Origin: Candidatus Saccharimonadota bacterium
Lineage (GTDB): Bacteria > Patescibacteriota > Saccharimonadia > Saccharimonadales > Saccharimonadaceae
Direction of reading: 5' to 3'
DNA length: 32,000 bases
NCBI GenBank assembly: GCA_000503915.1
Contig: CP006915.1
Coordinates: 270,001 to 302,000, forward strand
The notes under the pieces: model-generated
Told to the model about the DNA's origin: nothing
Databases searched by the model: none
The model's input: only the letters and a program-made list of their open reading frames with translations
Translations under genes and position numbers: made by a program
Shown: positions 10,143 through 31,353 of the stretch, one piece after another
Position numbering within the stretch: the stretch's first letter is position 1
Layout of the letters: each line of letters begins with the position of its first letter

Positions 10143-11246
10143 ATGGAACTCACAGTAACTCAGGAAAATTTCACAAAAGCGCTTAGTAATGCCAGTCGTG
10201 TAGCTAGCTCAAAAGCAGGACTGCCGATTCTTAGTAATATCCTTTTAAGGACAGATGGCTCAAGACTCCTCGTCGCTGCAACAAACCTTGAAGTAGCTAC
10301 AATGAATGCTATCGGTGCGAAAGTTAGTAAGCCAGGCTCGATCACAATCCCAGCCCGCTTAATTAGTGAGTTTGTACAAAACCTTCCAAAAGAGCAGATT
10401 ACTTTAACGGTAAAAAATAGCAAACTTCACCTATCGTCTGGTGCCTATTCTTCAACAATAAACGGATTGGCCGATGATGAGTTTCCAGAACTCCCCACTA
10501 TCGATACTAAAAGGGCTGTCAGCTATAGCATTACGACCGATGATCTAAAGCAAGCCGTATCACAAACAATCATTGCCTCAAGTAGTGACACTACCCGGCC
10601 GGTATTAACTGGTGTGTTCTGGCATTCCCATAACGGGCACGTCTATCTTGCAGCAACCGATGGCTACCGTCTCACGGAAAGAAAAATCGTCAAAACATCA
10701 AGTGAGCTTGCGGCTATTATTCCCACCTCAAGCCTCCAGGAAGTTTTACGGAGCCTCCGTGATGACATCCACGAGATTGAGATATTATTCGATGAAACTC
10801 AAGCAACGTTTCGTTTCGCGGAAATAGAGATCACCAGCCGCTTAATTGATGGTAGCTTCCCTGACTACCGTCAGCTAATCCCGGCAAAATCAGAAACAGT
10901 ATTCACTTTGAACCGGGAAGAATTTGTCCGCACAATTAAGATAGCTAGTTTGTTTGCGCGTGAGTCTGGCGGCGGTATTACATTAGCGCTCGATACTGAT
11001 AAAAAAACACTTACAATCCACTCTGTCGCATCGGAAGTTGGCGAAAACTCATCAGAGATTAATGTGACTACCACTGGTGCGGGGGGGAATGTTAGTCTCA
11101 ACTCGCGCTACCTACTCGATGCGCTCAGTGTTATGAATAGTGAAAATGTATCGTTTGAGTTTTCTGGTAAACTCGCTCCGTGTATTTTACATAATGACGC
11201 CAAAGAGCTCGACTATAAACATATTATTATGCCACTAAAGAGCTAG
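10143..11246 (+). CDS. dnaN: DNA polymerase III beta sliding clamp
   Basis: 367-aa ORF directly after dnaA. It has a typical DnaN N-terminus (F..AL..V.....K...PIL.NILL) and the three-domain length. Confidence 0.95.
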   Translation: MELTVTQENFTKALSNASRVASSKAGLPILSNILLRTDGSRLLVAATNLEVATMNAIGAKVSKPGSITIPARLISEFVQNLPKEQITLTVKNSKLHLSSGAYSSTINGLADDEFPELPTIDTKRAVSYSITTDDLKQAVSQTIIASSSDTTRPVLTGVFWHSHNGHVYLAATDGYRLTERKIVKTSSELAAIIPTSSLQEVLRSLRDDIHEIEILFDETQATFRFAEIEITSRLIDGSFPDYRQLIPAKSETVFTLNREEFVRTIKIASLFARESGGGITLALDTDKKTLTIHSVASEVGENSSEINVTTTGAGGNVSLNSRYLLDALSVMNSENVSFEFSGKLAPCILHNDAKELDYKHIIMPLKS

Positions 11247-11926
11247 CCGCCGATTATATCGAGATTGAAACTGTACTGATTAGAGTTAAGACCCTTAGAA
11301 GAAAGATATTTCTTCGCTTCAGCGACACGCTGTTTTATGATAGTTGCCTTATTGCCAAGATCGACCCGTGAGAGATACACAGTAAGATCGATCGTCAAAA
11401 GTGTCTCTCCATCCGGTGTGGTAACAAAACTTGGCGCAAGCGCGTATGACAGCGTACTGTACGGAATATAGTACATTATTGGGTCGGTATAGTAGGCTGG
11501 TCGCTCGCCCTCAAGACGCTTAATCTCTTTTTGTTGATCATTTGGAAGATCGTTAAACGATATGTCTCTCGGAGTAAATCGTACAGTACTGTCGTACTTG
11601 AAGCCGTCGTTAGACACGGCCTTAAGGCTAAATAATGCTTCTTTCCCGGCCGATAGGTTGGCGCTATTTAGGTAGAGCTTTATCGTTGACCCTTTCACCG
11701 ATACCTTGTCTTCAAATATCACCCCATTTCCCTCTATCTTCACACTGGAGGATTTAAGTGGTTTATTGAAGTTAAGTTCAAGCGAGGGGGTTTGGTAAGA
11801 TATGGAACCAAGCGATGGGTTGCTTGAGCTGATATAGAGAGTAAAAAAGAAACGAAGCACAAAAAAACCTATAATTATAAGTGGGAGCAACGAGGCAACT
11901 AAGATTATTTTCTTTGTAATTATCAT
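11243..11926 (-). CDS. Membrane-anchored hypothetical protein (N-terminal TM, extracytoplasmic beta-rich/Ig-like segment); last gene of the T4SS-like operon
   Basis: 227-aa ORF with one N-terminal hydrophobic helix (IILVASLLPLIIIGFFVLRFFF). The segment LELNFNKPL...VKIEG...STIKLYLNS...LFSLKAVSNDG has the rhythm of an SbsA/Big-type Ig-like domain. It starts 8 nt after the CHAP hydrolase gene. I recognise no catalytic motif. Confidence 0.5.
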   Translation of the reverse strand: MIITKKIILVASLLPLIIIGFFVLRFFFTLYISSSNPSLGSISYQTPSLELNFNKPLKSSSVKIEGNGVIFEDKVSVKGSTIKLYLNSANLSAGKEALFSLKAVSNDGFKYDSTVRFTPRDISFNDLPNDQQKEIKRLEGERPAYYTDPIMYYIPYSTLSYALAPSFVTTPDGETLLTIDLTVYLSRVDLGNKATIIKQRVAEAKKYLSSKGLNSNQYSFNLDIIGG

Positions 11927-11934
11927 TTTATCCC

Positions 11935-13188
11935 CTACTCTTTCGGTGAAACATAACCAACGATACTATCATTCCAGTCGTCTTTGGTGACGCTTGAGGT
12001 AGACGGTCCACCGTCGCCGGATTGGTTGCCACCAATTTTCATCACAACACCGTTATCGGCTGATACGACGATACTGACATGGCTTACTGAACTTCCCTTT
12101 TGTATTTGTAAGTCACCTGGCTGTGGGGTGTAACCTGCGGCGTTGTGGTAGACGAACTTATCGCCATCCTTGCCTATTTGCGCCACTTCATCCACGGTTG
12201 GGACATTACCCCCATTGCTAGTCTTTAATGGGTAGCCGGCTTGGCTATAGATCCAGCTGACGAAATCAGCACACCAGTTTTCATCACGGCCTTGGCTATA
12301 CTTATGAAAGTCGGTACCGGGCTTTAGCACATCACCTTCCCATAACTGTAACTCTTTCTCAGCCAGTGCCAGTACTCGCTGGCGCACTTCGCCGGATTGG
12401 GCGGTCTGACATGAATCGGTCGAGGAAATGCCAGCCATCGCTCCATAGACAACAAACGCCCCGTAGTCGTCATTAGCTGGATAGACTATACCGCCACCGT
12501 CGGTCTGGATCTGGCCCCAGCCTGTGGGGTTGCGCTCTGGGTCGCGGGGTTCATCAGCAATATTCATAACGTACGGCGAACCTTCATAGGGCTGGTTGAA
12601 GCCAAGTCGGGTAGCTTGCTCGGCGTAGACACTGGCGCGGCCGTTGTAGCTGAATAATGTGTCTTTTATGGCACTAATATCGCCGTTTTTGAGTAGTTCT
12701 GGGCTGGACGAAGCGTTCTTGAGAAAGTCTGCAGCCTCAGAACTTTGCTTGGCAAACGTGACGTCGTCGATGGTTGGAGACGCTGGGTAATTGACCGAAA
12801 GAATCTGGTAAGGACCGTCGCCGTTTACCGGGTTGTAGCGGCGCAAGCCGGTCTCGCGCAGATGGATGACGGCCAGTAGCTGCCAAGGAATACCGGCCTT
12901 GTCTGCCGCCGCTTCGTAAAACGGCTTATTTTCATTAAGCGCTTTTAGTTGGGCATCGGAGAGAATTGGACGGCTACGGTAGTCTTTATTCGTGCCAGTT
13001 CCCGCTATACCACTGAGTGAGCCTTGTTCGCAGACAGCGCCGCTCGCATCAGGGTTGTAATAGATAATATCGTTGCCCGAAAAAAACTGTTCGTCGAATG
13101 CATAGACCGACGAGCTATATAGCATCGATACGGTGAATGCTACCGCTAAAACTTGATACGAAATCCTCTGTTTATTTATCGTGCGCAT
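11935..13188 (-). CDS. Secreted cell-wall hydrolase: lysozyme/SLT-like N-domain plus C-terminal CHAP amidase/peptidase domain (VirB1/PrgK-type T4SS hydrolase)
   Basis: 417-aa ORF with a signal peptide (MRTINKQRISYQVLAVAFTVSMLYSSSVYA). The N-domain IPWQLLAVIHLRETG...NPVNGDGPYQI resembles the ES...GxxGxMQ core of lytic transglycosylases. The C-domain has the CHAP catalytic Cys context NWCADFVSWIY and a downstream His (VSHVSIVV). It overlaps the upstream giant gene by 13 nt. Confidence 0.75.
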   Translation of the reverse strand: MRTINKQRISYQVLAVAFTVSMLYSSSVYAFDEQFFSGNDIIYYNPDASGAVCEQGSLSGIAGTGTNKDYRSRPILSDAQLKALNENKPFYEAAADKAGIPWQLLAVIHLRETGLRRYNPVNGDGPYQILSVNYPASPTIDDVTFAKQSSEAADFLKNASSSPELLKNGDISAIKDTLFSYNGRASVYAEQATRLGFNQPYEGSPYVMNIADEPRDPERNPTGWGQIQTDGGGIVYPANDDYGAFVVYGAMAGISSTDSCQTAQSGEVRQRVLALAEKELQLWEGDVLKPGTDFHKYSQGRDENWCADFVSWIYSQAGYPLKTSNGGNVPTVDEVAQIGKDGDKFVYHNAAGYTPQPGDLQIQKGSSVSHVSIVVSADNGVVMKIGGNQSGDGGPSTSSVTKDDWNDSIVGYVSPKE

Positions 13189-16100
13189 GGAGCTGCCGCC
13201 TTGCGAGTAAATTCCTGGAGGTTTATTGACGTACCGTCCATAGCGAGGAAAACATCCTGAGGGCAGATATGTTTACCATCGAGTGCCATATCAATATGAA
13301 GGTGCGCGCCGTCAACTTTACAGCCAAGCTTACCCAGGCTTAGTATTTGCTGCCCGGCTTTGACGTTGTCGCCGACTTTGAATTTTGGATTAGTGCCGTG
13401 TCCGTACGCAATTTGCAGTTTTCCTTGAGAGGTGTCTGATTCGATTATCATACCATCTCCCAGGCCACAGAGATTTGTTCGCGTGACTATACCGTCGAGC
13501 ATTGAATAAATCGGCGAGCCGAGCGGTGGACTACTTATATCCACGGCTATCCCAATAGCGTAAGGGCTTGTGAAGGTACCGCTTATTAGGGTGTGTGCGT
13601 CGAGGAAATCGCTCCGGTTTGATGTCCACCATTTTTTATTGACCGGCCAGGCAAAACCAGAGGCACTGACCGATCCGGTAGCTCCGAGGCCTGTCGTACT
13701 GGGAATTTCGACATCGCTATATACCATGTTATGGTCTGATCCGTCTTCGTCTTTGCCACCCCTGACGTATCCGTAATTACTAGCACGCATAGAGGTACTG
13801 ATAAATATATGGTCGATCAGATTATTGCCTCTAACGTCGCGTTCGCTTGGGCATTCGCCTGTTTTATTTTGCTGCGCATCAGACACATGCCATAGCAGCT
13901 CGTCTCGTGTCAGGATGCAGTAGGAGAGGTTCTCTCTCTTCCCGTCGAGTGGCTTATTCCCACTTGCTTCGACGGTCATCTTAGAGTTGAAGTCACCGGT
14001 AAATATCACGGGGGCATCGTTCAGCTCGTTTTTGATTAACGCTGCGTACATATCGTTATTATCTTTACGGTCTTGTGGTCCACCCGCAGAGTCGGCTCGT
14101 TTATTGATCGGGTCGTGCGTGTTGAGTACGTAAAATTCTGGTCCATTAGCCCCATTTTCAATATATCGAAGCTTCACAACATTGAGCTTGCGGTTGCCGT
14201 CGTATCTGATTTTCTTCTGTTGAGCGCTGACGAATTCAAACTTCGTTTTATTCCATAACACGACAGAGTCGGGGTTGACGTCTAGGTCTGCTCCGTCTCC
14301 CGGCTTTGTCGGCCACATATCATAGACGTCGGCTCCATACTCGGCACTTTTTAGTGCTACTTGCTGCTTTGGACGTGCCTCCTGGAGTCCGGCGATGTCG
14401 ATATTGTTGTCTTTCAGGGTAGCAATAGAGTCTTTGAGCCTATTATCCCAGGTGAGCGGGTCGTCAGCATGGAGGATATTAAAGGTTGCGACTCTAAACT
14501 GAGCACCAGTGCCGCTGTAGCTACTAGTGAGAGGTTCGTCGTCGCTACCATCAAGAATGTCACTAACCTGCTTGTCGTATTGATAGAGCGATTCGGCCGC
14601 TTTGGTTTTGTTGTCAATCGTGCAGCCACCGACCGACTCCAAATCAGCTTCCGCACAGTCGGCGAGCCGATCAGCGATCTTGCTGTCGTTTTCATCCCAC
14701 ATACCGGTATCTTTATTGATATTGGCGCCTTCCTCCTCGGTAGCGATTTTATATACCTCGTCAACCGACATATTGAGGTATTCTGCCGGTATACCGACAC
14801 ATGGGTAGCCGGCCGGATTGATAGCGATGTCGTCTTCGATATCAAACATACTGGCATGGCTACAACGCGCCTCGGCCGCCGCCGCGTCTTCCTCGGGGGT
14901 GGCGCCAGCCGTCGGCGAGATAATACTACTAGGAGTGCGGAGGAGTAATGAGCCGATCGACGACATGGAGGTGAACAGATTGTTTGATAAAACACCACTG
15001 GTCGATAGGCCGGAGACAATACTTCCCATGAAGGTGTACTTACTGGATATGTCAAACGGGTTTAGGGTGGCAATAGCCTCTTGCCGGTAGTCATTCTCGA
15101 CATCATCCATTGCCTGGTTGAAAGCGACTACCTGGTTTGTCTTTAGTACACCCCCACCACCCGCCAGGCCGCTCATAGAGAAGTAACTGAAAAGCCCCAC
15201 GCCGAGCGCGTCACCCAGTTTTTCGCCCCGCGCTCCCTCGGTGTAGTTATCAACAAAACCAGCAGTAAGCTTAAAGGCTTGATCTGCAACAAAGTTAATA
15301 AGGCCAGACTTGTCGGCAATCGTTATGAAAGCGTCTACTGCACCGATGCCAATAAGAACCTTAGCTACAGCTTTTAAAGTTGCCCATGCAACAAAAGAAA
15401 GGCCAAGCGTTTCTGGACCAGCTGCGGCTGCGACTGATGCATCCACAGCTGTGGCGGCTACAAGAGCTTCTGGACTCATTATCTTGTTACATGCACCATT
15501 AGTTGCTTTATTGAGCTTTCCGGTACCTTGTACGAAAGAGTTCTTATATGCGGCGTAGCCGGGGGCGTATCTTGAGTTAGGGGTTATATTCTTGTTCACT
15601 CCAATGGCACTGAGCAAGATTGCAGAATCAAGCGCTGATTTTCCGTCGACAGTCTCTGTAAGCTTCGACCCAAGCGCTGACACTTCTTCGGAGCTTGCTT
15701 CACCGGCTTTTATCTTCCCGGCAGGTGACAAAACGGCATCGTTAACCAACACAAGAATCTGGGCAAGTTGTATTGCTCGGTATGTTCCGGCAATAAAACC
15801 GGGAAGATTAGATAATACACAATATCCAGTGCCAAGCGTAAGTGATACACTTCCGCCCGATTTCTTAATCCGTTCACCTGATCTTTCTACGAGCGATTTG
15901 AATCTATCATGGAACTTCGCCTTCTTTGCCGTCTCATCAAGGTCGGAGCTGGAAGAATCAAGCTTTTTATCAAGCTCATCATCTACATTGTCGGCGTTAA
16001 GTTTCTTGTCATCCGAGGCGAGGCCACCAGTTTGAGCGAGACCAAACTTGCTGTAGAATACTTTCTTTATGTATTTCCCTGTCCACGCTCGGTAGCGCAT

Positions 16101-16847
16101 ACTGTAGGATTTCTTGAAAGCACTTCGAAGCTCAGGATTTCGTTTATATTCTTTGGCAAGTTCTGAGGCATTTATTGTCCGTTTGCCACCATCGGCCAGT
16201 GTGTCGGGGATTTCATATTTCGCCGGATTCCTGTCGGGATAGCCGGACTCTGAAGCTACTTTTATCTCTTTTCCATCGGCATCGAGCGGTTTGATGCCCT
16301 GGGCACTCATGCGGCTGAGCATTTTATTGGGCATTTTTCCCATATTACACTCATATTTGGACACCTTACAGCCGCTACTGTCGCCGCTACTGGACTTCTT
16401 CTCCAGCCATTTTACGAAGCGGTGATCCATGATGGTGCTGCGGCTATCGAGTGTATCAAGACTGTTGGCTTGGAGACTGGGGAACATACTGAAGCTTCCA
16501 AAAAGTGAGGAAAGGACAATCCCTAGGATCCCGACACCGCCGAATATACCGGTGGTAGCGCCTTTTCGACTTCCAGCGAAGCCGACTACTTTCTGCCGGA
16601 AACTACGGCCATCTCTTGGCTTAGTCTCCGAGGGTTGGTAGTTGTACTGATTCTCGCGGTTTTTGACATCATCGATATTCTGCGAGGCATTCGCTGGGTC
16701 ATTGGCGTAGGCTTCTGCCTGATCGAGACCGCTATTGGCGTAGTCACTGCCCGCTGCTTTTTCGCGTGCTTGAAGATCGGGATGCGTGTCGAACATCTCC
16801 CGTGCTCGTTCATCGATCTTGTCTTCACGTTTTATATTTTGAGCCAT
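13176..16847 (-). CDS. Giant membrane protein with a C-terminal endonuclease/exonuclease/phosphatase (EEP) domain and an M23/LytM-like peptidase domain
   Basis: 1223-aa ORF. The first ~95 aa are polar, followed by a TM (TGIFGGVGILGIVLSSLFGSF). A region of about 650 aa with several hydrophobic/amphipathic stretches has no motif I recognise. The EEP motif set lies at aa ~783-1043 (13719-14501): RVATFNIL, IAGLQEA, FTGDFNS, IDHIF, GSDHNMV. The M23 core lies at about 13230-13640: GSPIYSMLDGIV, AYGHG, GDNVKAGQ, GAHLHID. Confidence 0.8.
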   Translation of the reverse strand: MAQNIKREDKIDERAREMFDTHPDLQAREKAAGSDYANSGLDQAEAYANDPANASQNIDDVKNRENQYNYQPSETKPRDGRSFRQKVVGFAGSRKGATTGIFGGVGILGIVLSSLFGSFSMFPSLQANSLDTLDSRSTIMDHRFVKWLEKKSSSGDSSGCKVSKYECNMGKMPNKMLSRMSAQGIKPLDADGKEIKVASESGYPDRNPAKYEIPDTLADGGKRTINASELAKEYKRNPELRSAFKKSYSMRYRAWTGKYIKKVFYSKFGLAQTGGLASDDKKLNADNVDDELDKKLDSSSSDLDETAKKAKFHDRFKSLVERSGERIKKSGGSVSLTLGTGYCVLSNLPGFIAGTYRAIQLAQILVLVNDAVLSPAGKIKAGEASSEEVSALGSKLTETVDGKSALDSAILLSAIGVNKNITPNSRYAPGYAAYKNSFVQGTGKLNKATNGACNKIMSPEALVAATAVDASVAAAAGPETLGLSFVAWATLKAVAKVLIGIGAVDAFITIADKSGLINFVADQAFKLTAGFVDNYTEGARGEKLGDALGVGLFSYFSMSGLAGGGGVLKTNQVVAFNQAMDDVENDYRQEAIATLNPFDISSKYTFMGSIVSGLSTSGVLSNNLFTSMSSIGSLLLRTPSSIISPTAGATPEEDAAAAEARCSHASMFDIEDDIAINPAGYPCVGIPAEYLNMSVDEVYKIATEEEGANINKDTGMWDENDSKIADRLADCAEADLESVGGCTIDNKTKAAESLYQYDKQVSDILDGSDDEPLTSSYSGTGAQFRVATFNILHADDPLTWDNRLKDSIATLKDNNIDIAGLQEARPKQQVALKSAEYGADVYDMWPTKPGDGADLDVNPDSVVLWNKTKFEFVSAQQKKIRYDGNRKLNVVKLRYIENGANGPEFYVLNTHDPINKRADSAGGPQDRKDNNDMYAALIKNELNDAPVIFTGDFNSKMTVEASGNKPLDGKRENLSYCILTRDELLWHVSDAQQNKTGECPSERDVRGNNLIDHIFISTSMRASNYGYVRGGKDEDGSDHNMVYSDVEIPSTTGLGATGSVSASGFAWPVNKKWWTSNRSDFLDAHTLISGTFTSPYAIGIAVDISSPPLGSPIYSMLDGIVTRTNLCGLGDGMIIESDTSQGKLQIAYGHGTNPKFKVGDNVKAGQQILSLGKLGCKVDGAHLHIDMALDGKHICPQDVFLAMDGTSINLQEFTRKAAAPCAR

Positions 16848-16859
16848 AGCTACCTAAGA

Positions 16860-18767: not shown

Positions 18768-19645
18768 TATGCCCTACCTTTTGTGACGTAGGTGCTGGTC
18801 ACATTGTCAAAGTCACTAAGTGGCTGCCGGACGGCTGTGTCGGGGTTATAGATGTTGTAATACAGCTCGCCTAGCTCTTTGGTGTTCAGCTGGACGCTTT
18901 TGACGCCAAGCTGAAACAGTCCACTCATGACAGCATCGACACGGTTTTTGATCTCATCTTTTGCTTTATCGTAGGCGGCTTGGTCGATCTTGACTGGCTC
19001 GGTGCTTTGCTTGGCGAATAATTTACCGAAGAAGCCTTTTGCCTGATCGCGCAAGTCGGAAAGGTCACCCCCGGGGTAAAACGGCACGATGATAAAAAAG
19101 CTCTTGTCCATAATGTTGGCTTCCTGGCTCAGGACGTCGATAAAGTTGATGTAATCGTCCATCAGGACGCCGAGCAGCATATTGTCTTGGTTGCGCCGCA
19201 AAGTGGCGAGACGGTCGATGTAGGGGCCGATATCGACACGCTGTGAGCGGATAAACACTTGAGCGGGAAAATAGAGCGAGTTCAGAAAGTTCTGGTAGCT
19301 ATACTCTACCCCTTCGCGTTCTTTACTGCTCATGAGGTCGAAGTTGATCGACTTACAGGCGATGACAGCGCGAAAACTACCGTCGCGCATGATCACCATG
19401 CTCTCGCGAATTTCAGAGATCAGCAGAGTGTTCTGAGTCGTGTTGGGGTTTGGTTTTGGCTTGGCTGGTGCCGCCTGGCTTTGTGGCTGAACGGGACTTG
19501 CGGGAGTTACCGAGGGGGCTGGCTGTGGCGCAGCAACGGGAGGCACACTCGAAGAACCGATCGGGACGGTCGGTTGCTGTGGTGGCAGGGCTTGCTGGTT
19601 TGGGGTGTTAGGGGGCATTGCCGAAAAAGAGTTATTCCCACTCAT
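18767..19645 (-). CDS. VirB4-like N-terminal domain protein (split VirB4, part 1) with a P/Q-rich leader
   Basis: 292-aa ORF. The first ~70 aa are low-complexity P/Q/A/S. Then LISEIRESMVIMRDGSFRAVIACKSINFDLMSSKEREGVEYSYQNFLNSLYFPAQVFIRSQRVDIGPYI follows. This matches my memory of the N-terminal block of monoderm VirB4 homologues (I..I.dG.i...dg....v..v..iNf.L.s..E......f..fLn.l....Q). Confidence 0.6.
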   Translation of the reverse strand: MSGNNSFSAMPPNTPNQQALPPQQPTVPIGSSSVPPVAAPQPAPSVTPASPVQPQSQAAPAKPKPNPNTTQNTLLISEIRESMVIMRDGSFRAVIACKSINFDLMSSKEREGVEYSYQNFLNSLYFPAQVFIRSQRVDIGPYIDRLATLRRNQDNMLLGVLMDDYINFIDVLSQEANIMDKSFFIIVPFYPGGDLSDLRDQAKGFFGKLFAKQSTEPVKIDQAAYDKAKDEIKNRVDAVMSGLFQLGVKSVQLNTKELGELYYNIYNPDTAVRQPLSDFDNVTSTYVTKGRA

Positions 19646-19657
19646 TATGCCGATTTT

Positions 19658-20596: not shown

Positions 20597-20620
20597 ACTG
20601 CTTATAGTATAGCAAATCGA

Positions 20621-23569: not shown

Positions 23570-23578
23570 TTAAGAATG

Positions 23579-23607
23579 ATTATGCCCTAGTTCTATCTAA
23601 ACATCAA
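23579..23607 (-). promoter_or_regulatory. Sigma70-like promoter for VirB6-like paralogue A
   Basis: On the minus strand: TTGATG (23602-23607), a 17-nt spacer, then CATAAT (23579-23584). Only 9 nt separate the -10 element from the ATG at 23569, and there is no SD. This implies a leaderless or near-leaderless mRNA. Confidence 0.4.
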
Positions 23608-23619
23608 TAATAAGAAGAT

Positions 23620-23644
23620 GGCTCGACTTCGGTGGAGTCGAGCC
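23620..23644 (-). terminator. Intrinsic terminator-like hairpin after the 295-aa gene
   Basis: A 9-bp perfect stem (ggctcgact at 23620-23628 / agtcgagcc at 23636-23644) with a 7-nt loop, 8 nt downstream of the stop at 23652. On the minus strand a T-rich tract (TCTTCTTATTATT) follows. Confidence 0.5.
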
Positions 23645-23651
23645 TATACTA

Positions 23652-24539
23652 TTAACCTTCGTTGATCTTTATAGTTCCATCTTTTTGCTGAACCAGCTGG
23701 TAGGGCTGTTCTAGTTTTACGTCGATGGATTTATGTTCTGAGTAATTATTGTCTTGGTCTTGCACCATATATTCGACGCGCAGATAGCTCAAGTCAGGGT
23801 AATTCACTGGATCGTTCACAAATGACGAGTAAACACTACAGCCATAGTCCTGTGGTGCGGTGTCATTTGAAGCGGTAGGACAGACGAATGTGCCGATATC
23901 CTTGACGTCGGGGTTTTCTGCAAGAATTTGTGCGGCAATATCTTTGAGAGAGTTCACGATCTCCGAATCAGGTGTATCGGTAAAGTCGCTCACCGGAATT
24001 TTGTCGACAGGAATGTCGGGGTTTTCTACGAGCACTCCTAAGTACCAGTTGAGGTCTTCACGGATGCTTTTATTGAAAACGCTGCCCCATTCGTCATCGC
24101 TAATACCCTCTAGTATATTCGCATCAAACTGAACGCGATCTTTGTTCTGGAACAGCGCCTCGATTCTTTGATCGAGCGTCTCGGTATCAATTTTAGTTAT
24201 GCCAGGCTCTTTGGTGCCCGGGTCGGCAGACTCGCCGCCACTAGTTGCTACTAATGCGCCGCCAATACCTATAACACTAGTGGCTACCATTCCTGCGATA
24301 GCTCGGCGGTGTCTCCGCATAAAGCTTTCGTTGGATTTCGCTGGGGCTTCTTGCACCACATCGACAGGTTGAGTCAACGGTGTGATGTCTCTAGAACTTT
24401 CGGGAATTTTTAGAGTTGCATCGGCTAGAGGGATGTCAGACTCTTCAAACGGGCGCTCTCCATGATGGACTCCTGAGTGAGGAATTTGTTCCTTGGATCG
24501 ATTACCGTTGCCGAATGTGAATGGTTCTTGGTTGGCCAT
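23652..24539 (-). CDS. Bitopic membrane protein of unknown function (candidate VirB8/TcpC-position T4SS component)
   Basis: 295-aa ORF. It has a polar N-terminus of about 80 aa, one TM (AIAGMVATSVIGIGGALVATSG) and an extracytoplasmic domain of about 190 aa. It is sandwiched between the two VirB6-like genes, with its own predicted promoter and terminator. I recognise no diagnostic motif. Confidence 0.45.
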   Translation of the reverse strand: MANQEPFTFGNGNRSKEQIPHSGVHHGERPFEESDIPLADATLKIPESSRDITPLTQPVDVVQEAPAKSNESFMRRHRRAIAGMVATSVIGIGGALVATSGGESADPGTKEPGITKIDTETLDQRIEALFQNKDRVQFDANILEGISDDEWGSVFNKSIREDLNWYLGVLVENPDIPVDKIPVSDFTDTPDSEIVNSLKDIAAQILAENPDVKDIGTFVCPTASNDTAPQDYGCSVYSSFVNDPVNYPDLSYLRVEYMVQDQDNNYSEHKSIDVKLEQPYQLVQQKDGTIKINEG

Positions 24540-24588
24540 ATGATATGGTTCCCCTGCGCCTAGTACGCTTTACTGATGTATGTTTGCT

Positions 24589-24617
24589 ACTATACACCAA
24601 ATTCACGAAAAATGCAA
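24589..24617 (-). promoter_or_regulatory. Sigma70-like promoter for the 295-aa bitopic protein gene
   Basis: On the minus strand: TTGCAT (24612-24617), a 17-nt spacer, then TATAGT (24589-24594). It lies about 50 nt upstream of the ATG at 24539. Confidence 0.45.
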
Positions 24618-24649
24618 GCGTGTGCTTTTTACGTCAAGGGTTGACAGGA

Positions 24650-27600
24650 TTACAGTTGCCCGTTCGGTCCGCGTCCGTCATCAAAGTCGTGGACACGATC
24701 TGTGCGGAAGACTGTCGGAGCCTTTGTCTTTGCATACGTCTCGTATGCAACCTTAGTCTCCATCGGTATGGTCGAGCGGCGATCGCTTATGTAGTTGCCA
24801 ATGACCTGCATCAACTCGGCCTCACGGTCACCAATACCTGCCCTAACTTGAGGATCGGTAAGCGCGAATTCGATCGTATTAACCAGAGAGACGCGCGCAC
24901 TTTCGTCAATCCTGCCTCGCATATCGTCGTCACGAAGTATCTGAATCGTGCGCTGGAGTTCATCGACATCGGTTTGAGCCAAGCGGCTGGCATTGATCTT
25001 CTTGTCATTGATGTCACGGACAATTGCCTCCTGGCCTTCCAGGAAGAAGGTACCGACTTCAGCGTTGCCTCGGTCTGTGCCCGAGAAGCTTTTGATTGCC
25101 AACTTGCTGTTTTTGGCCGACTCAACGAATAGCTGCTGAATGTCACGACGGCGATCGATCTCTGCTTGATCGGTAATCCGCACACCTTTAAGTGGCTTAC
25201 CTTCGGCATCTTTTTGTATGAAGCCTTGCGCATCACGTACGAGCTCGTAGTAAGCATTGTCGTCCTCGTCATAATTCATACCAAGAGTACTGACGTAATC
25301 TTTTGTCCTCTGGTAGGCCCAGTTGTTACCTTTGGTGAGGAGTATCTCACGCATAGCTGCGTCACGAAGGGCTTCGTTGCTCGATACATCGTTTTCGTCC
25401 CTGTCGTGACCAGTTTGATGAAGCTTAATCAACTCGGCTAAGCTATACTCACTGAGCACGGAGCGAGAGTTCTCGACATCCTCGAGGTAGGCAGAGACAA
25501 TGTCCTTCTTTGCTTTAGCATATATGCGGTTCGAAGCGCTCTCACCGCCAATGCCGCCCGCGTAGGTTCGTAGGGCGTCGTTGGTTTTGAGCTCGTTGGA
25601 CATGTTGGCCTGTTGTACGCGTTTGGCGGCTTCTTGACCCCACTTCTCTACCTCAATATCTTGGCCAAGCTGCTTGATCCTTCCGGCGGCCATTTTATCG
25701 GCGTTGAGCGTGATATTTGGTGCGGAGGCTCCGTCGGCACGGATATTAGCGATCAGCTTGTTCCACTGCTCTTCATACTTGGTGGCAGAATCAGTGGCCT
25801 CCACAGCCTGTAAACGAAGATTGCGAACATGGTCGTCTGTTCGTGAGGTGCGATCAAAGTAGGCATCAGCTCGTTTCTCTAAAATCGTATCAATCGTGCC
25901 GGCCTCCTTTTTCATCGCTTGAGTTTCGTTGTAAAGTCGCCGCAGACCACGTGCTGCTGCAGAACTTCCGGTAAATTCGCTCTTGAACTCTAGCTCCGCT
26001 TCAGTGTCGAGCCGTGCCTTAATCGCCTCGGCATGCTTGGTGTCGACGGTCGCATGAATCTTTCTGTCACGAAGTGCTTGGGTTTGGTTGATCTGAGTTT
26101 GCAAGTCGCGCTCAGCATGAGCTGTGAGTGACTCTTCGTAAATATCGCCCCTTCCCTTGGCGAGGTGTGCCTCGTGGTGGAGTTGGCGACGATAGACATT
26201 CTGTCTGTCGTTACCAGTGGCCATAGCAGTTTTGTAGCCTTCGAAATTGGTACTCTCACCATAGTGCTTCTCTGCTTCGGCATCGTGGGAACGAGTGTAG
26301 ATACGACGTCCGGCTGCAGTCTGCGTAAAGAGTCCTTCGCTCATACTTTCATTGGCGGTCTTCATAGCTTCGCGCTCACGGCGGCGGTAGTCACGGTAGT
26401 AGGCCAGGTTGTTGGGGTTGGTGCGCGCCAAGCCGCGGCGCAGCCTGCTATTATACTGGCGTCGACCGTCCTGGAAGCCCAGTCGTTTTGCTCGCTGATC
26501 TTGCTGCATGCGACCACGAGCCTGCTCTTGCCCGCGGCGCGTGTCAGCCCAGTTCTTGGTGCGGTCAAAGACACCCTTACTCTTATCGTTGGTGATATTG
26601 GCGATTGCGGAAAGCAGACCACCACTCAGCTTAATGAGAAATGGCGTAATAAAGAGCGGGACGATCTGGACGGTCATACCGAGGATGACCACGATGATAC
26701 TGTCGGTATTTTGGATGATAAGCGTCCCCGCCAGCTGGGCACCACCGAAAATGACCGAAAAGGCCGGGAACATGATAAGCATGTTCATGAATAGCTTCCG
26801 CCAGCGTGTGAACCATTCTTCAGTGTTTGGTAGTAGGTAGGCGACGAATGCCAGGGGCGAGATGATGATAAATATCGTGATAAGCGCCTGCCTGGCCGCC
26901 AAGACGGCGACGGCGACGATGGCAGCAAAAATAGCCGGGATTAGCGCGCTCAGGAGCAGCATCGCCAACCCTACGCCTGTACCAGAGGCGATGATCACTG
27001 CCGAAGCGCCGAAAAGTACCGCACCTCCGCCCGCTAATACGCCGGCGCTGACATTTGCCCAAGTTGGTGTGGCGGTATTGGCGGCGGCAGAATTAGGCGC
27101 ACCGGCGATAGCGCGGAGCGACTCGAACATATTCTGAATGGAGAACCCAAGGATATTTGAAAGGTCGACTCCGAGTGCACAGATCCAGTACGAAAGGTTC
27201 ACCAGGATAGCTGCGATGATCAGACGAGGCAAAAGTTTTTTGATTGTGTAGTTACTGAGAAGTCCCCCGGTGATTTGACCATAGATCATGATAAGGAACC
27301 CGACTACGAATAGAACATTAGCGATACTTCGAGCGATGTCCCACATCCGGTACAGGCTGCTGTCGTTGGTGGTGAGGAGAGAAACCTCAAAAAATTTGGT
27401 GATGACACCATAGAGAAAGTCCATCGATTCGGCGATCGCTTTACTGACGGGACAGATAATCCAACCGATACCATCGAGGTCACATGAACTGGTCGGCTCC
27501 TGTATCGGCGGTGCGCGTGGGGTGATGTGGATTGTCTCGGACGTCCCAGGATCAGAAAACTCCGGTAGTCCGTTTTCTCCGCCGGTATATTTTTCGTAGC

Positions 27601-27913
27601 TGATAAATGTTGCCGACTTCGATTCATTGAGGTAGCTTTTACTCTCAGTCGAATCAAAGAAAATGACCGAACCCTTCTTCTGATCCTTTATGAGGTCTAC
27701 GAAAACGATTGACCCATCTGGAACGCCAGGCAGAGTATCTGAGGCTTGTTTGACGATTGGCCCTTGGTAGGTGCGGCCGTCATAAAGAATGGTTTTATCA
27801 TCTTGCCAGGTGGCGTCGCTGGCGGCATACACCGAGGTAGGGCTAAGGAGTAAATACGTGAAGACGACCACCAAAAATGTGGCGAACAGCATGATAAAAT
27901 TCCGCGTGGACAT
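24650..27913 (-). CDS. Giant VirB6/TrbL-like polytopic T4SS channel protein, paralogue B (very long charged C-terminal tail)
   Basis: The ORF-track frame is open to 27949 (1099 aa). I prefer the ATG at 27913 because GAGG lies 4 nt upstream and the product then starts with a clean signal peptide, MSTRNFIMLFATFLVVVFTYLLLSPTSVYA. Blocks shared with paralogue A: SSCDLDGIGWIICPV, LPRLIIAAILVNLSYWICALGVDLSNILG, SPLAFVAYLLPNTEEWFTRWR. An R/E/K/D/Q-rich C-terminal region of about 630 aa follows (about 24650-26539). Confidence 0.75.
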   Translation of the reverse strand: MSTRNFIMLFATFLVVVFTYLLLSPTSVYAASDATWQDDKTILYDGRTYQGPIVKQASDTLPGVPDGSIVFVDLIKDQKKGSVIFFDSTESKSYLNESKSATFISYEKYTGGENGLPEFSDPGTSETIHITPRAPPIQEPTSSCDLDGIGWIICPVSKAIAESMDFLYGVITKFFEVSLLTTNDSSLYRMWDIARSIANVLFVVGFLIMIYGQITGGLLSNYTIKKLLPRLIIAAILVNLSYWICALGVDLSNILGFSIQNMFESLRAIAGAPNSAAANTATPTWANVSAGVLAGGGAVLFGASAVIIASGTGVGLAMLLLSALIPAIFAAIVAVAVLAARQALITIFIIISPLAFVAYLLPNTEEWFTRWRKLFMNMLIMFPAFSVIFGGAQLAGTLIIQNTDSIIVVILGMTVQIVPLFITPFLIKLSGGLLSAIANITNDKSKGVFDRTKNWADTRRGQEQARGRMQQDQRAKRLGFQDGRRQYNSRLRRGLARTNPNNLAYYRDYRRREREAMKTANESMSEGLFTQTAAGRRIYTRSHDAEAEKHYGESTNFEGYKTAMATGNDRQNVYRRQLHHEAHLAKGRGDIYEESLTAHAERDLQTQINQTQALRDRKIHATVDTKHAEAIKARLDTEAELEFKSEFTGSSAAARGLRRLYNETQAMKKEAGTIDTILEKRADAYFDRTSRTDDHVRNLRLQAVEATDSATKYEEQWNKLIANIRADGASAPNITLNADKMAAGRIKQLGQDIEVEKWGQEAAKRVQQANMSNELKTNDALRTYAGGIGGESASNRIYAKAKKDIVSAYLEDVENSRSVLSEYSLAELIKLHQTGHDRDENDVSSNEALRDAAMREILLTKGNNWAYQRTKDYVSTLGMNYDEDDNAYYELVRDAQGFIQKDAEGKPLKGVRITDQAEIDRRRDIQQLFVESAKNSKLAIKSFSGTDRGNAEVGTFFLEGQEAIVRDINDKKINASRLAQTDVDELQRTIQILRDDDMRGRIDESARVSLVNTIEFALTDPQVRAGIGDREAELMQVIGNYISDRRSTIPMETKVAYETYAKTKAPTVFRTDRVHDFDDGRGPNGQL

Positions 27914-27959
27914 TCTACCTCGCGGGAAGCTTAAGACTAACTCCCACATATCGCTTCTA

Positions 27960-27988: not shown

Positions 27989-28021
27989 CCACCCGTCTCT
28001 GATAATAGTCACGGAAAATAC

Positions 28022-28050: not shown

Positions 28051-28059
28051 AAAGAAGAC

Positions 28060-28749
28060 ATGAAATTAAAACAAAAAATTCTAGTAACTGGAGTGTTTAC
28101 GCTTTTCGTTTCACTGTTTAGCCTGGCAGGGTTGGTGTACCCAGCCTACGCTGATCCGGCAGCGACTGGAAAATCGGTGGTATGTAACGACGGTAAAACA
28201 GTCGTAGCACATAAGTATGATGCCCCACCAGTTGAATCTATGGACGACAAAGACTACCAAGTCGCCTGCAAGAAGCATCGTGGCTATACGCATATCGATG
28301 AAACGATCGTCTGTAAAGACGGCAGTTCACAAAATGTCTATAAAAAACTAGCCGATCCCAAGGATAAGTTAGATGACAAAGATAGACAAAAAGCTTGCAA
28401 GGGGCATGGTGGCATTAAACCAGCTTCCTCGGATGACGAGCCTGCAGTCAACGACTGTGGAGGCGTCGACACAGCTATCATCAAATGCGACAGTAGCGGC
28501 ACCGGCCTCGAGAGCAATGCTGTCTGGAAGTTGCTGATCATCGCGATCAACATATTGAGCGCCGGCGTGGGTATCTTGGCGGTCGGCGGCATCATCTATG
28601 CTTCAATCCTCTATACGACGGCCGAAGACAAGCAGGATCAGATCAATAAAGCCAAGGACATCATCCAAAATGTGGTCATTGGACTTGTTGCCTACGCTCT
28701 GATGTGGGCGGGACTTAATTTCTTGATACCAGGAGGATTATTCAGTTGA
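28060..28749 (+). CDS. VirB2/TrbC-like T4SS pilin paralogue 1 (long, with a duplicated Cys-module ectodomain)
   Basis: 229-aa ORF with a signal peptide ending AYA-D. Two modules of about 36 aa share identical Cys spacing. The C-terminal two-helix hairpin (LLIIAINILSAGVGILAVGGIIYASILY ... NVVIGLVAYALMWAGLNFLIP) is shared with the five downstream genes. Confidence 0.65.
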   Translation: MKLKQKILVTGVFTLFVSLFSLAGLVYPAYADPAATGKSVVCNDGKTVVAHKYDAPPVESMDDKDYQVACKKHRGYTHIDETIVCKDGSSQNVYKKLADPKDKLDDKDRQKACKGHGGIKPASSDDEPAVNDCGGVDTAIIKCDSSGTGLESNAVWKLLIIAINILSAGVGILAVGGIIYASILYTTAEDKQDQINKAKDIIQNVVIGLVAYALMWAGLNFLIPGGLFS

Positions 28750-29201
28750 TGAAACGGTTTACTCATTTTGTTATTTCAGGACTCATTGTCATCCTTGGCA
28801 TGGGGGCAATGACACTGACGGTGGCACCAACGAGCTATGCCGCCCCGAAAGCTGACTGTAGTACGTCAAACTTCCTTACTTTTCCTGCCTGGTACAGGGG
28901 GCTTATAAATGAAGATGACTGTACGATGAAGAGCCCGAGCCAGCTTGGTGGCGATGATGAGACGAAACTATCGCGTTATATCTGGCGGATTGTTCTGAAC
29001 GTCCTCGAAATCGCGCTGCAGGTCGTCGGTTACGCGGCGGTCGCATACCTTATCTATGGCGGCTACAAGTACCTGGTGAGCACTGGTAGCCCCGACAAGA
29101 TTACGGCAGCTCGTAAAACGATCCAAAACGCTTTGATTGGCCTGATACTGTCCTTTATGTCGGTGGCGATTGTCGCAACGATTGCTGGAGGGATCAAGTA
29201 G
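28746..29201 (+). CDS. VirB2/TrbC-like T4SS pilin paralogue 2
   Basis: 151-aa ORF. It starts at TTG 28746 (AGGAGG 9 nt upstream) or ATG 28749 and overlaps the stop of paralogue 1. It has a signal peptide (…TVAPTSYA), two Cys in the mature N-region and a C-terminal two-helix hairpin (VVGYAAVAYLIYGGYKYLVSTGSPDKITAARKTIQNALIGLILSF). Confidence 0.65.
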   Translation: MMKRFTHFVISGLIVILGMGAMTLTVAPTSYAAPKADCSTSNFLTFPAWYRGLINEDDCTMKSPSQLGGDDETKLSRYIWRIVLNVLEIALQVVGYAAVAYLIYGGYKYLVSTGSPDKITAARKTIQNALIGLILSFMSVAIVATIAGGIK

Positions 29202-29202
29202 T

Positions 29203-29493
29203 ATGTTTGCTTCTCTGTACACTCTGGCAGCAACGAAGATTAGCGGTAGCGATATTAATATTCCACGAGTAGAGGCCGACAGTGTTCTTGCAAGTGTACT
29301 CAATATTGCCTATTTTGCGGCTGGCATCACCGCGGTTATCGTCGTCATCGTCGGCGGCATCTTCTATGCGATTTCATATGGTGACATGGCAAAGGTCAAG
29401 CGTGGCAAAGATATGATCCTCTACGGGGTGATCGGTCTCGTCTTTGTCATGATTGCTTTTACGGTGACAAACTTTATAGTAGGATGGTTTTAG
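29203..29493 (+). CDS. VirB2/TrbC-like T4SS pilin paralogue 3 (shortest; no obvious cleavable signal peptide)
   Basis: The ORF-track frame opens at 29170 inside paralogue 2. I prefer the ATG at 29203 (GGAGG 11 nt upstream, 1 nt after the upstream stop), giving 96 aa. Hairpin: ITAVIVVIVGGIFYAISYGDMAKVKRGKDMILYGVIGLVFVMIAFTVTNFIVGWF. Confidence 0.6.
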   Translation: MFASLYTLAATKISGSDINIPRVEADSVLASVLNIAYFAAGITAVIVVIVGGIFYAISYGDMAKVKRGKDMILYGVIGLVFVMIAFTVTNFIVGWF

Positions 29494-29495
29494 AT

Positions 29496-29873
29496 ATGAA
29501 GCGAAGATTTACTACCCTCACCCTTGTAGCAGCAATGACGTTTGGCGTAGCGTCAATGGTACCAGCTGCTTCCGCTGGTGCGATAAACGTCTTTGATAGC
29601 TGTAGCACTGGTACAAGCGACAGTGAAATATGTAAAGCAAAGAACGAATCGATCAACCCGGTGGTTCAAAATATCATCAACCTGCTGCTGTGGGCGATCG
29701 GCCTGATCTCGGTCATTATGATCATCATCGGCGGCATCCGTTACACGATGTCAAATGGCGACGCCAATATGGTGCGCGCCGCCAAGGATACGGTGATGTA
29801 CGCGGTGATCGGCTTAGTCGTTGCAATACTGGCCTATGCTATCGTTAATTTTGTCGTTACTTGGTTTAAATAA
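29496..29873 (+). CDS. VirB2/TrbC-like T4SS pilin paralogue 4
   Basis: The preferred start is the ATG at 29496 (MKRRFTTLTLVAAMTFGVASMVPAASA signal peptide). The mature N-region has C-x9-C. The hairpin LLLWAIGLISVIMIIIGGIRYTMSNGDANMVRAAKDTVMYAVIGLVVAILAYAIVNFVV is nearly identical in pattern to paralogues 5 and 6. Confidence 0.75.
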   Translation: MKRRFTTLTLVAAMTFGVASMVPAASAGAINVFDSCSTGTSDSEICKAKNESINPVVQNIINLLLWAIGLISVIMIIIGGIRYTMSNGDANMVRAAKDTVMYAVIGLVVAILAYAIVNFVVTWFK

Positions 29874-29885
29874 AAGGAGAACACT

Positions 29886-30272
29886 ATGACACACAAGCTA
29901 CGTACTCTCATTCTGTCTGGCCTTATGGTACTGGGGCTCAGCGCGGCTCCATTAGTGTTAGCCGGCAATAGCGTTTACGCCACCACTGCAACCGACAATG
30001 TCACCAAGGGCTTGAATGCTACAGGTGCCAGTAATGGTAAGAACCTTCAGAAGAACATTAAGACAGTTGTAAATGTTATCCTCTTCTTGCTCGGTGCGAT
30101 TGCAGTGATCATGATTATCCTTGGTGGCGTGCGCTACGTGCTCTCCAATGGGGAGGCATCACAGGTGACAGCGGCAAAAAATACGATTCTGTACGCGGTG
30201 ATCGGCTTGATCGTTGCCCTACTCGCCTATGCGATTGTCAACTTCGTCGTCGATCAGTTTACAAAGCCTTAA
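29886..30272 (+). CDS. VirB2/TrbC-like T4SS pilin paralogue 5
   Basis: 128-aa ORF with AGGAG 6 nt upstream and a signal peptide (…VLAGNSVYA). Hairpin: ILFLLGAIAVIMIILGGVRYVLSNGEASQVTAAKNTILYAVIGLIVALLAYAIVNFVV. It shares a 19-nt identical run with paralogue 4 (29797-29815 = 30190-30208). Confidence 0.75.
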   Translation: MTHKLRTLILSGLMVLGLSAAPLVLAGNSVYATTATDNVTKGLNATGASNGKNLQKNIKTVVNVILFLLGAIAVIMIILGGVRYVLSNGEASQVTAAKNTILYAVIGLIVALLAYAIVNFVVDQFTKP

Positions 30273-30334
30273 CAAAAGAGGTGGATTCTGCTATAACTAA
30301 AGCAAGTAACATTCGAAGAAAGGAATTAAAACGA

Positions 30335-30757
30335 ATGAAAAATATTTTGAAAAAAGCTGCACGTTCGCTGATGCTCGTACCAGCAATGGCGTTGGCACTG
30401 AGCTTTGCGGCAGTACCGTTTGGCGGTTCCGCGTATGCTGCTGACCCAACTTGTGATGGTACTACTGGCCTCAACGCTACAACCGGAGCAAAATGTGCTA
30501 AAGGAACTGGTACAAGTGATAATCTATTTGGTCAAGGCGGGATCTTCCGAACCATTACCAACGTACTACTCTTCCTAATTGGTGCCGTAGCGGTCATTAT
30601 GCTGATCATCGGCGGTATCCGCTACACGATTTCAGGTGGTGACTCAACTGCCGTCACTGCCGCAAAAAACACGATTCTTTACTCAATCGTCGGAATCATC
30701 GTGGCGCTGCTTGCTTACGCGATTGTCAACTTCGTACTCGATAGCTTTACAGTTTAA
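30335..30757 (+). CDS. VirB2/TrbC-like T4SS pilin paralogue 6
   Basis: The ORF-track frame opens at 30281 on a GTG. I prefer the ATG at 30335 (MKNILKKAARSLMLVPAMALALSFAAVPFGGSAYA signal peptide). The mature N-region has C-x13-C. Hairpin: LLFLIGAVAVIMLIIGGIRYTISGGDSTAVTAAKNTILYSIVGIIVALLAYAIVNFVL. It shares a 17-nt identical run with paralogue 5 (30231-30247 = 30719-30735). Confidence 0.75.
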   Translation: MKNILKKAARSLMLVPAMALALSFAAVPFGGSAYAADPTCDGTTGLNATTGAKCAKGTGTSDNLFGQGGIFRTITNVLLFLIGAVAVIMLIIGGIRYTISGGDSTAVTAAKNTILYSIVGIIVALLAYAIVNFVLDSFTV

Positions 30758-31305: not shown

Positions 31306-31353
31306 GATTTCCTCCACTTCCATCTAAGGCTCTATTGACAGATTGTCCCCTTC

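Follow-up and report, generated by a model that had tools for sequence, protein, structure and literature searches.

The stretch of DNA analyzed here (the window) comprises 32,000 nucleotides (nt), positions 270,001-302,000 of the forward strand of CP006915.1, from Candidatus Saccharibacteria bacterium RAAC3_TM7_1. Its genes were called from a listing of open reading frames (ORFs) together with Pfam and NCBIfam profile scans of these ORFs. Next to the probable origin of replication the window contains a cluster of 15 closely packed genes (11243-30757), nine on the minus strand followed by six pilin genes on the plus strand, which encode components of a type IV secretion system (T4SS). Judged from sequence and gene order, this is the known chromosomal T4SS of Saccharibacteria, its genes being orthologous one by one to SEML1_0005-0019 of Southlakia epibionticum ML1 (compared here over SEML1_0005-0020). 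The features are listed below, with protein lengths in amino acids (aa) and transmembrane segments abbreviated as TM; the topologies given agree with hydropathy analysis.

11243..11926, minus strand: bitopic exported protein, 227 aa, one N-terminal TM; positional counterpart of SEML1_0005 (Ig/PEGA-like)
11935..13188, minus strand: wall hydrolase, 417 aa, putative lysozyme/SLT-like N-domain and CHAP domain (residues 302-388, E 2.4e-7)
13176..16847, minus strand: post-VirB4 protein, 1223 aa, N-module of about 770 aa followed by EEP (Exo_endo_phos, residues 787-1039, E 1.6e-12) and M23 (Peptidase_M23, residues 1102-1195, E 1.9e-10)
13719-14540, minus strand: EEP domain of this protein (Pfam Exo_endo_phos)
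13260-13540, minus strand: M23 domain of this protein (matches solved M23 structures, E 1e-7)
16860..18767, minus strand: VirB4 ATPase core, 635 aa, CD1110/MPF-FATA type (NCBIfam NF045971, 374 bits at a cut-off of 325)
18767..19645, minus strand: TrsD-like protein, 292 aa, counterpart of SEML1_0009 and homologous to the N-terminal part of VirB4 (E 1.4e-6 with NCBIfam TrsD, under its curated cut-off)
19658..20596, minus strand: PrgI/VirB3-like membrane protein, 312 aa, with a long low-complexity tail (Pfam PrgI, E 5e-14)
20621..23569, minus strand: extended VirB6-like protein 1, 982 aa (Pfam TrbL, 27.6 bits at a gathering cut-off of 25.9)
23652..24539, minus strand: bitopic protein, 295 aa, TM at 79-99, candidate VirB8-like (NTF2-like) by Foldseek
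24650..27949, minus strand: extended VirB6-like protein 2, 1099 aa, paralogue of the 982-aa protein by BLASTP, no Pfam hit
28060..30757, plus strand: six VirB2-type pilin genes of 229, 151, 107, 129, 128 and 158 aa (Pfam T4SS_pilin PF18895, all six)
8300..8519, no strand: probable oriC in the rnpA/rpmH-dnaA spacer, with DnaA boxes
8520..11246, plus strand: dnaA and dnaN, core genes abutting the cluster (Pfam Bac_DnaA, E 2.7e-69; DNA_pol3_beta, E 1.4e-35)
30832..32000, both strands: hsp20 (minus; HSP20, E 1.4e-18) and the 5' part of comF (plus, from about 31414; reading frame)

Among the first seven genes of the minus strand, and likewise in the pilin array, gaps and overlaps amount to 1-32 nt, a spacing compatible with translational coupling. 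The 295-aa gene is flanked by gaps of 82 and 110 nt, and a divergent spacer of 110 nt parts the two operons.

The VirB4 protein matches NF045971 over model positions 172-732 of 752, and both Walker motifs read intact (A, GAGKS; B, IVDEAW). Its identity to VirB4 proteins from hundreds of Saccharimonadales clusters is 88-92%, and in a survey with one genome per species at least 586 species genomes contained a confirmed relative. One protein that is 88% identical (P0043) carries the label Streptomyces caniscabiei; its source is probably the genome of a Saccharibacteria epibiont deposited within a Streptomyces assembly. To look at the gene neighborhood we used the 80 best fetched VirB4 loci with flanks (L001-L080), all from Saccharibacteria-type metagenome-assembled genomes, and searched them by tblastn. 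The TrsD-like gene was adjacent to VirB4 in all 80 of these loci, and PrgI, whose two TM lie at residues 20-68 of the window protein, was found in 75.

A closer relation between the 292-aa protein and VirB4 is suggested by a single VirB4 model, Mbov_0397 from the integrative and conjugative element (ICE) of Mycoplasma. The 292-aa protein matches its positions 233-280, and VirB4 its positions 284-891 (261 bits, below the curated cut-off). Because the two matches cover successive parts of the same model, the pair is colinear with a full-length VirB4. Among 31 orthologues of the 292-aa protein TrsD was matched by 30, the Mycoplasma VirB4 model by 28 and other VirB4 models by five to six. Direct comparison of the 292-aa protein with VirB4 by BLASTP and hhalign gave no match, which is expected if both cover different parts of full-length VirB4, and a profile of the 292-aa family found no match among the PDB sequences. 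The TrsD arrangement has been described from the pGO1 subclass, and TrsD is the commonest T4SS component of Patescibacteria (PMC12102498). The "split VirB4" of the original prediction is thus essentially right, if understood as what the sequences indicate, a conserved two-gene state of the TrsD/TrsE type and not a frameshift or a broken gene.

Two extended VirB6-like proteins accompany this motor. The 982-aa protein has a signal peptide, a cysteine-rich ectodomain, 5-6 TM and a hydrophilic tail of about 360 residues, and it matches the Mollicutes family MMCAP2_0566 weakly (E 0.012). The 1099-aa protein is 42% identical to it over a membrane domain of 346 aa (BLASTP, E 3e-69), the tails being weakly similar (E 7e-6). 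Each paralogue was detected in about 62 of the 80 loci.

The bitopic protein encoded between them (295 aa, 100% identical to RAAC3_TM7C00001G0323) was modeled with AlphaFold2 (AF2) from an alignment of six sequences. The mean confidence of the model (predicted local distance difference test, pLDDT) was 57, with values of 70-90 in the C-domain. Foldseek returned weak matches with this model (best E 0.048), all of them NTF2-like, including VirB8 of R. typhi and of R388 at E 0.45-0.6. For the positional counterpart SEML1_0012, Table S2 of Wang lists an NTF2-like hit by DPAM (ECOD e4ec6D1; PMC10633639), whereas the survey of Patescibacteria reports no VirB8 structural homologue in S. epibionticum (PMC12102498). 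SEML1_0012 is non-essential by transposon sequencing (Tn-seq; PMC10633639). The N-terminus of the 295-aa protein (24450-24539, minus strand) is nearly invariant among six homologues over its first approximately 30 residues (MANQEPFTFGNGNR..EQ.PHSG.HH.ERP, 25 of 30 identical), and the rest of the sequence falls to 29-33% identity. This segment may represent a cytoplasmic docking peptide. The second bitopic protein (227 aa) has a weak Big_5 match (E 0.07), and its counterpart SEML1_0005 has an Ig-like fold (PMC10633639). It had no tblastn match in the 80 loci and so seems to evolve fast; both bitopic proteins are too divergent for detection by tblastn in these loci.

All six plus-strand genes match the T4SS pilin family PF18895, five above the gathering score and the first pilin with 22.9 bits against 26.6. 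A C-terminal hairpin of two TM is present in every one of them and a leader in five, the exception being the 107-aa protein. The other pilins are 22-28% identical to the first. In NCBIfam all six have a single T4SS-related match, to NF045849 (pilin-like family Mbov_0395 from Mycoplasma ICE), with 16.9-32.4 bits at a cut-off of 40 and E 5.5e-8 to 3.6e-3. These matches are a hint that VirB2-like pilins do occur in a T4SS lineage of monoderms, where they are usually said to be lacking. The first pilin (229 aa) carries an extra ectodomain (28150-28440, plus strand) with an internally repeated cysteine motif, C.DG...DDKD.Q.ACK.H.G.

Wall-hydrolase domains are distributed over two genes. In the PrgK type TM, LytM/M23, SLT and CHAP are combined on a single polypeptide; here EEP and M23 are found on the 1223-aa protein, and the lysozyme-like and CHAP domains on the 417-aa protein. 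Compared with structures, the profile of the 417-aa N-domain gave a single weak match, the goose-type lysozyme 3wyh (E 0.38), and an invariant glutamate lies in an R-E-T/S motif. The S. epibionticum counterpart SEML1_0006 is described as lysozyme-like with a cysteine protease (PMC10633639). The CHAP protein was detected in only six of the 80 loci.

The 1223-aa protein follows VirB4 in the cluster, and in fetched loci with full flanks the post-VirB4 gene lies at about 11.8-16.6 kb. Its N-module has a TM at about residues 97-125 and a conserved pair of cysteines (Cys731 and Cys742) at the module boundary that is invariant among the orthologues. The N-module is conserved in 48 loci, and it is only these first approximately 770 residues that the orthologues keep. 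The C-terminal part is exchanged: among 67 orthologues Pfam detected VanY in 24, M23 in 17, EEP in five, C39_2 in four, M15_4 in four, CHAP in two, and BSP, C70 and NlpC/P60 in one each. Clustering of these C-terminal tails by BLAST separated the domain types poorly. Altogether the heads seen on post-VirB4 proteins comprise VanY/M15, M23, C39-like, CHAP, NlpC/P60, one to three EEP domains and once a loop resembling a protein tyrosine phosphatase (PTP). This last case is the EEP protein P0250, which ends in the PTP-like loop HCQGGRDRTG.

The EEP head was followed further. The window protein and the relative P0128 have the catalytic N, E, H, GDFN, D and SDH in common, which is the motif set required of the superfamily. 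A full HMMER scan found 384 representative proteins with E <= 1e-3, 196 of them at E <= 1e-10, whereas a word-indexed homologue search yielded just two. Most of these relatives have a length of 1200-1700 aa and carry EEP at about residues 800-1100; in many of them two or three stretches of EEP occur. In a sample of 17 EEP proteins the N-module profile matched eight, all of them among the 10 that were longer than 1200 aa. An AF2 model of the EEP domain (alignment of two sequences, pLDDT 47.6) had TDP2 and CCR4 as its nearest structural neighbors. We take these matches as indicative of the EEP fold only. The searched literature contained no paper that connects EEP domains with Saccharibacteria.

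The M23 domain next to it reads GIAVD at the HxxxD motif, so that the first zinc-binding histidine is missing at its canonical position; the HxH motif and the middle histidine are present. With this zinc ligand missing, peptidase activity is uncertain, and the domain may be degenerate or regulatory. The closest EEP-bearing relatives have A-A-D-I or S-A-D-I at the same site.

Gene order and orientation are the same in the window and in S. epibionticum, from dnaA-dnaN through the Ig-like protein, the lysozyme/cysteine-protease hydrolase, the post-VirB4 protein, VirB4, the TrsD-like protein of about 290 aa and PrgI to the first VirB6-like protein, the bitopic NTF2-like protein of about 280 aa, the second VirB6-like protein, the six oppositely oriented pilins, Hsp20, ComF and tRNA-Ser, and the protein sizes are similar. 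S. epibionticum has recF and SEML1_0004 between dnaN and the cluster, both missing in the window; its post-VirB4 protein ends in a DD-peptidase (VanY/M15-like) instead of EEP and M23; and its second hydrolase, longer than that of the window with one lysozyme-like domain and CHAP, has two lysozyme-like domains and a cysteine protease. SEML1_0006-0019 have been reported to form a T4SS that is essential and similar to the conjugative systems of Gram-positive bacteria, with essential pilins and without recognizable coupling or relaxase proteins, and of the genes SEML1_0005-0020 all but SEML1_0012 are essential or growth-defective in Tn-seq for epibiotic growth (PMC10633639).

A survey of Patescibacteria found T4SSs of MPF-FATA ancestry close to dnaA, dnaN and rnpA, with TrsD, PrgI, VirB6 and pilin arrays of 2-11 genes, and rarely with a relaxase (PMC12102498). 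The window shares with this chromosomal group a VirB4 of the clade, the adjacent TrsD, PrgI and VirB6, the pilin array, the lack of a relaxase and the position at dnaA/dnaN, and we see no system-level difference from the published descriptions (PMC12102498, PMC12857230). In the 80 loci dnaN was detected in 57 and dnaA in 53, and the pilins and hsp20 wherever the 10-kb flank extends to them. From its sequence conservation the cluster is a vertically inherited core feature and not strain-specific cargo. The region had already been shown in environmental genomes, RAAC3 being among those compared (McLean 2020, PMC7427843), and a review of 2025 puts forward a pilus-or-conduit hypothesis (PMC12857230). 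The original prediction considered the architecture undescribed. This does not hold, as the T4SS itself, its six pilins, two VirB6 proteins and TrsD, the missing relaxase and coupling protein and the position have all been published (PMC10633639, PMC12102498, PMC12857230, PMC7427843). What stands of the claimed novelty is the hydrolase bearing an EEP domain, absent from the searched literature; neither this domain nor a swappable C-terminus on the N-module is reported in the survey (PMC12102498). The locus is hence already known, and it is the biology of the earlier reading that is supported and not its novelty. We regard the swappable head on a conserved N-module, including the EEP version, as the modest additions of the present analysis.

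Among the conjugative MPF-FATA systems of monoderms (pCF10 Prg, pIP501 Tra, pGO1 Trs, CTn2/CD1110) the shared elements are the CD1110-type VirB4, PrgI, a polytopic VirB6/PrgH analogue, a TrsD-like protein beside the ATPase as in pGO1, multidomain hydrolases of the PrgK/TraG kind (LytM, SLT, CHAP) and the lack of an outer-membrane core. The MPF-FATA channel set is present in the window, with the FATA-type VirB4 above the CD1110 cut-off, PrgI, TrbL, CHAP and M23. Unlike these systems the window cluster has no relaxase, type IV coupling protein (T4CP) or adhesin; it has VirB2-type pilins, two extended VirB6 paralogues, hydrolase domains spread over two genes with EEP added, and a fixed chromosomal location. 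The Mollicutes ICE modules Mbov_0395, MMCAP2_0566 and Mbov_0397, which by their NCBIfam family names belong to mobile ICEs, match the pilins, a VirB6-like protein and VirB4, all below the curated cut-offs. We treat this possible relationship to Mollicutes ICEs as a lead. The Bordetella Ptl and Brucella VirB systems also work without a dedicated coupling protein; unlike the window system, they are found in diderms, have VirB7/9/10 cores and an unrelated gene order, and are dispensable for growth.

No relaxase, T4CP, VirB11 or integrase was found among the window ORFs scanned with Pfam and NCBIfam, no tRNA and no Rfam family within the window, and no direct repeats bracketing the cluster. Approximately 8 kb past the window end could be read from a contig (L081) that is 100% identical to the window end. 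This extension completes comF and carries tRNA-Ser, a seventh pilin gene outside the array, further tRNAs, a HIT protein and an aminoacyl-tRNA synthetase; it has no integrase, relaxase or T4CP. The tRNA-Ser(TGA) gene and, on the opposite strand, the orphan T4SS_pilin gene lie just past comF (L081 7225-7768, about 115-660 nt past the window end), mirroring SEML1_0022 and SEML1_0024. The 3' end of tRNA-Ser has no repeat at the dnaN border. The relaxase and T4CP that a functional conjugation system needs are therefore missing from the 32-kb window and the approximately 8 kb downstream, as are the integrase or recombinase and the att repeats at a tRNA that characterize an ICE.

Upstream of the probable oriC spacer rnpA, yidC and jag lie on the minus strand. 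The spacer contains perfect TTATCCACA DnaA boxes at 8362 (plus) and 8395 (minus) and a third box with one mismatch at 8449 (minus), and the cumulative guanine-cytosine (GC) skew has its minimum near 10-11 kb. The nine-gene operon of 16.7 kb (11243-27949, minus strand) is oriented head-on to forks leaving oriC (about 8.3-8.5 kb), an orientation identical in S. epibionticum ML1. From 12 kb on, that is in the cluster, GC content is 0.48-0.55 compared to 0.44 in dnaA/dnaN; as the cluster is deeply conserved, protein composition is a likelier cause than recent transfer. On the other side the hsp20-comF order matches SEML1_0020-0021. An ORF of 117 aa (31324-31677, minus strand) runs antisense to the comF frame (from about 31414, plus strand) and is almost certainly not a gene.

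Apart from novelty, the original prediction had described much of this locus correctly: a contiguous block of about 19.5 kb, which corresponds to the 15 genes spaced mostly by 1-32 nt; the core set of PrgI/VirB3, a VirB4 in two pieces, two VirB6/TrbL proteins and six pilins, which is borne out by the Pfam and NCBIfam matches and the VirB6 paralogy; two bitopic proteins, found with a single TM each; and core genes on both flanks, dnaN on one side and hsp20/comF on the other. The Pfam searches it proposed were run and matched PrgI, TrbL, T4SS_pilin, CHAP, Peptidase_M23 and Exo_endo_phos, and the synteny and conservation survey is the one given above. Two of its statements need adjustment. The hydrolase set is correct for CHAP, M23 and EEP over two genes, with the SLT-like part remaining weak, and the list of missing parts is accurate for the window, with a tRNA-Ser about 115 nt past its end. 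The absence of DNA-transfer genes applies to the window and about 8 kb beyond, VirD4-like genes being common elsewhere in Patescibacteria genomes. A mobility module with att repeats just outside the window was seen on neither side, and the idea of a domesticated chromosomal machine instead of an ICE agrees with the missing mobility genes and with flanks that recur across species. The proposed interaction with a host bacterium fits the conservation across Saccharibacteria and had already been published as a hypothesis.

Based on these results we consider it probable that the cluster is a chromosomal T4SS derived from monoderm conjugation machinery of the MPF-FATA type, which is no longer a DNA-transfer element and serves as a VirB4-driven, T4CP-independent pilus or channel in the obligate association with its host bacterium. 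For this machine we infer that a pilus is formed, and likewise in which direction transport proceeds and what its substrates are. The VirB4 ATPase would work together with the separately encoded TrsD-like homologue of its N-domain and with PrgI/VirB3, on a membrane platform of the two extended VirB6 paralogues and possibly the VirB8-like bitopic protein. This motor could extract Sec-inserted VirB2-type pilins from the membrane and polymerize them into a pilus or tube; VirB4 assembles pili independently of a coupling protein. The two hydrolase genes would provide the means to open the cell wall, one with its lysozyme-like and CHAP domains and the other with a variable peptidase or phosphodiesterase head on the conserved N-module; the wall of the epibiont itself would be a certain target, and that of the host a plausible one as well. 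The resulting filament or channel might mediate an exchange with the host bacterium that depends on contact and is required for the epibiont to grow.

Some points weigh against this interpretation. To our knowledge a pilus has not been observed with any T4SS of Patescibacteria. For the RAAC3 organism the evidence comes from its sequence, and that for essentiality from the S. epibionticum orthologues. The N-module of 770 aa would be a major component of the machine and had no detectable relative in Pfam (E <= 10), NCBIfam or the PDB sequences. The SLT-like assignment of the 417-aa N-domain (E 0.38) is a weak one, and the 295-aa protein, whose model has a mean pLDDT of 57 and Foldseek matches all at E > 0.04, is a candidate for a VirB8-like component. 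Finally, a VirD4-like coupling protein may be encoded elsewhere in the genome, as is usual for VirD4-like/T4CP genes of Patescibacteria (PMC12102498).

Of the rival explanations, delivery of effectors or toxins to the host, as in the bacteria-killing X-T4SSs, is the only one with appreciable probability, although we regard it as unlikely; it overlaps with the pilus or channel model. The variable C-terminal enzymes of the post-VirB4 proteins would then be host-directed weapons. Exchange of the C-terminal domain on a conserved N-module, as seen among the 67 orthologues, is a pattern typical of polymorphic effectors, but modular variable hydrolases are also normal for the VirB1/PrgK-type remodeling of the own wall in monoderm T4SSs. 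EEP versions occur in hundreds of clusters, often in two to three tandem copies, and one protein has the PTP-like loop, but no immunity gene is evident beside the enzyme and the cluster has no T4CP to recruit cytoplasmic effectors. While the conserved cysteines where the modules meet speak for an extracellular location, the N-terminal TM gives the protein the appearance of being tethered and not released.

A second alternative, a DNA-uptake machine similar to the ComB or Ced T4SSs that imports host DNA with the aid of the nuclease-like EEP domain and comF, appears improbable to us. Saccharibacteria are unable to make nucleotides de novo, comF adjoins the cluster, and the EEP domain has an intact catalytic set and a low-confidence model that is nearest to the nucleic-acid phosphodiesterases TDP2 and CCR4. 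The domain is present in just five of the 67 sampled orthologues, however, and is thus not core to the machine. VirB4 has generic matches to the DNA-import ATPases CedB and CedD (E 2e-11 and 6e-6), which are far weaker than those to conjugative VirB4 proteins. Moreover, competence of S. epibionticum depends on type IV pili and ComEC: deletion of comEC abolishes transformation and leaves growth unharmed, whereas the T4SS is essential.

We find it very improbable that the cluster is a Ptl-like exporter that secretes the six small Sec-dependent proteins as subunits of a toxin, in which case they would not be pilins, as suggested by McLean 2020. The proteins do adjoin T4SS genes, at least five have an N-terminal leader, and the T4CP is missing as in the Bordetella Ptl system; yet all six match PF18895 and have in common the VirB2 hydrophobic hairpin of two helices, similarity to pertussis toxin S1 is just about 11% (PMC7427843), and later papers reinterpret them as pilins. 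A conventional ICE or its recent remnant, with relaxase, coupling protein and integrase just beyond the window, can be regarded as effectively refuted: the VirB4 family named for conjugative elements (CD1110), the tRNA-Ser gene and the slightly raised GC of the cluster (0.50-0.55 compared to 0.44 in dnaA/dnaN) stand against the lack of mobility genes in the window and in the approximately 8 kb past its end, the lack of bracketing repeats and of a copy of the tRNA 3' end at the opposite border, the same flanks (dnaA/dnaN, hsp20) in dozens of species and in S. epibionticum, a VirB4 about 90% identical between species, and orthologous genes that are essential in S. epibionticum.

We would like to offer a tentative proposal, which we regard as rather unlikely, in two parts, the second being the smaller one. 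In the first, the post-VirB4 protein is a polymorphic enzyme tethered to the T4SS, whose N-module docks to the machine and whose head is exchanged from lineage to lineage to match the host envelope or to harvest host material, which could represent a determinant of host range or nutrient acquisition. The EEP head of RAAC3 would cut host nucleic acid or phosphodiester-linked polymers of the wall or of lipids at the contact site. In the second part, the pilins would have been inherited from a monoderm ancestor similar to the Mollicutes ICEs and not borrowed from diderms.

The T4SS of Saccharibacteria is the only one on which its own carrier is known to depend for growth, and it is probably central to how the ultrasmall epibionts of the candidate phyla radiation live off their hosts. 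This importance has already been recognized in the literature, to which the window adds another orthologous copy. The swappable head, its unreported EEP variant and the unexplained N-module could serve as handles on the action of the machine on the host envelope.

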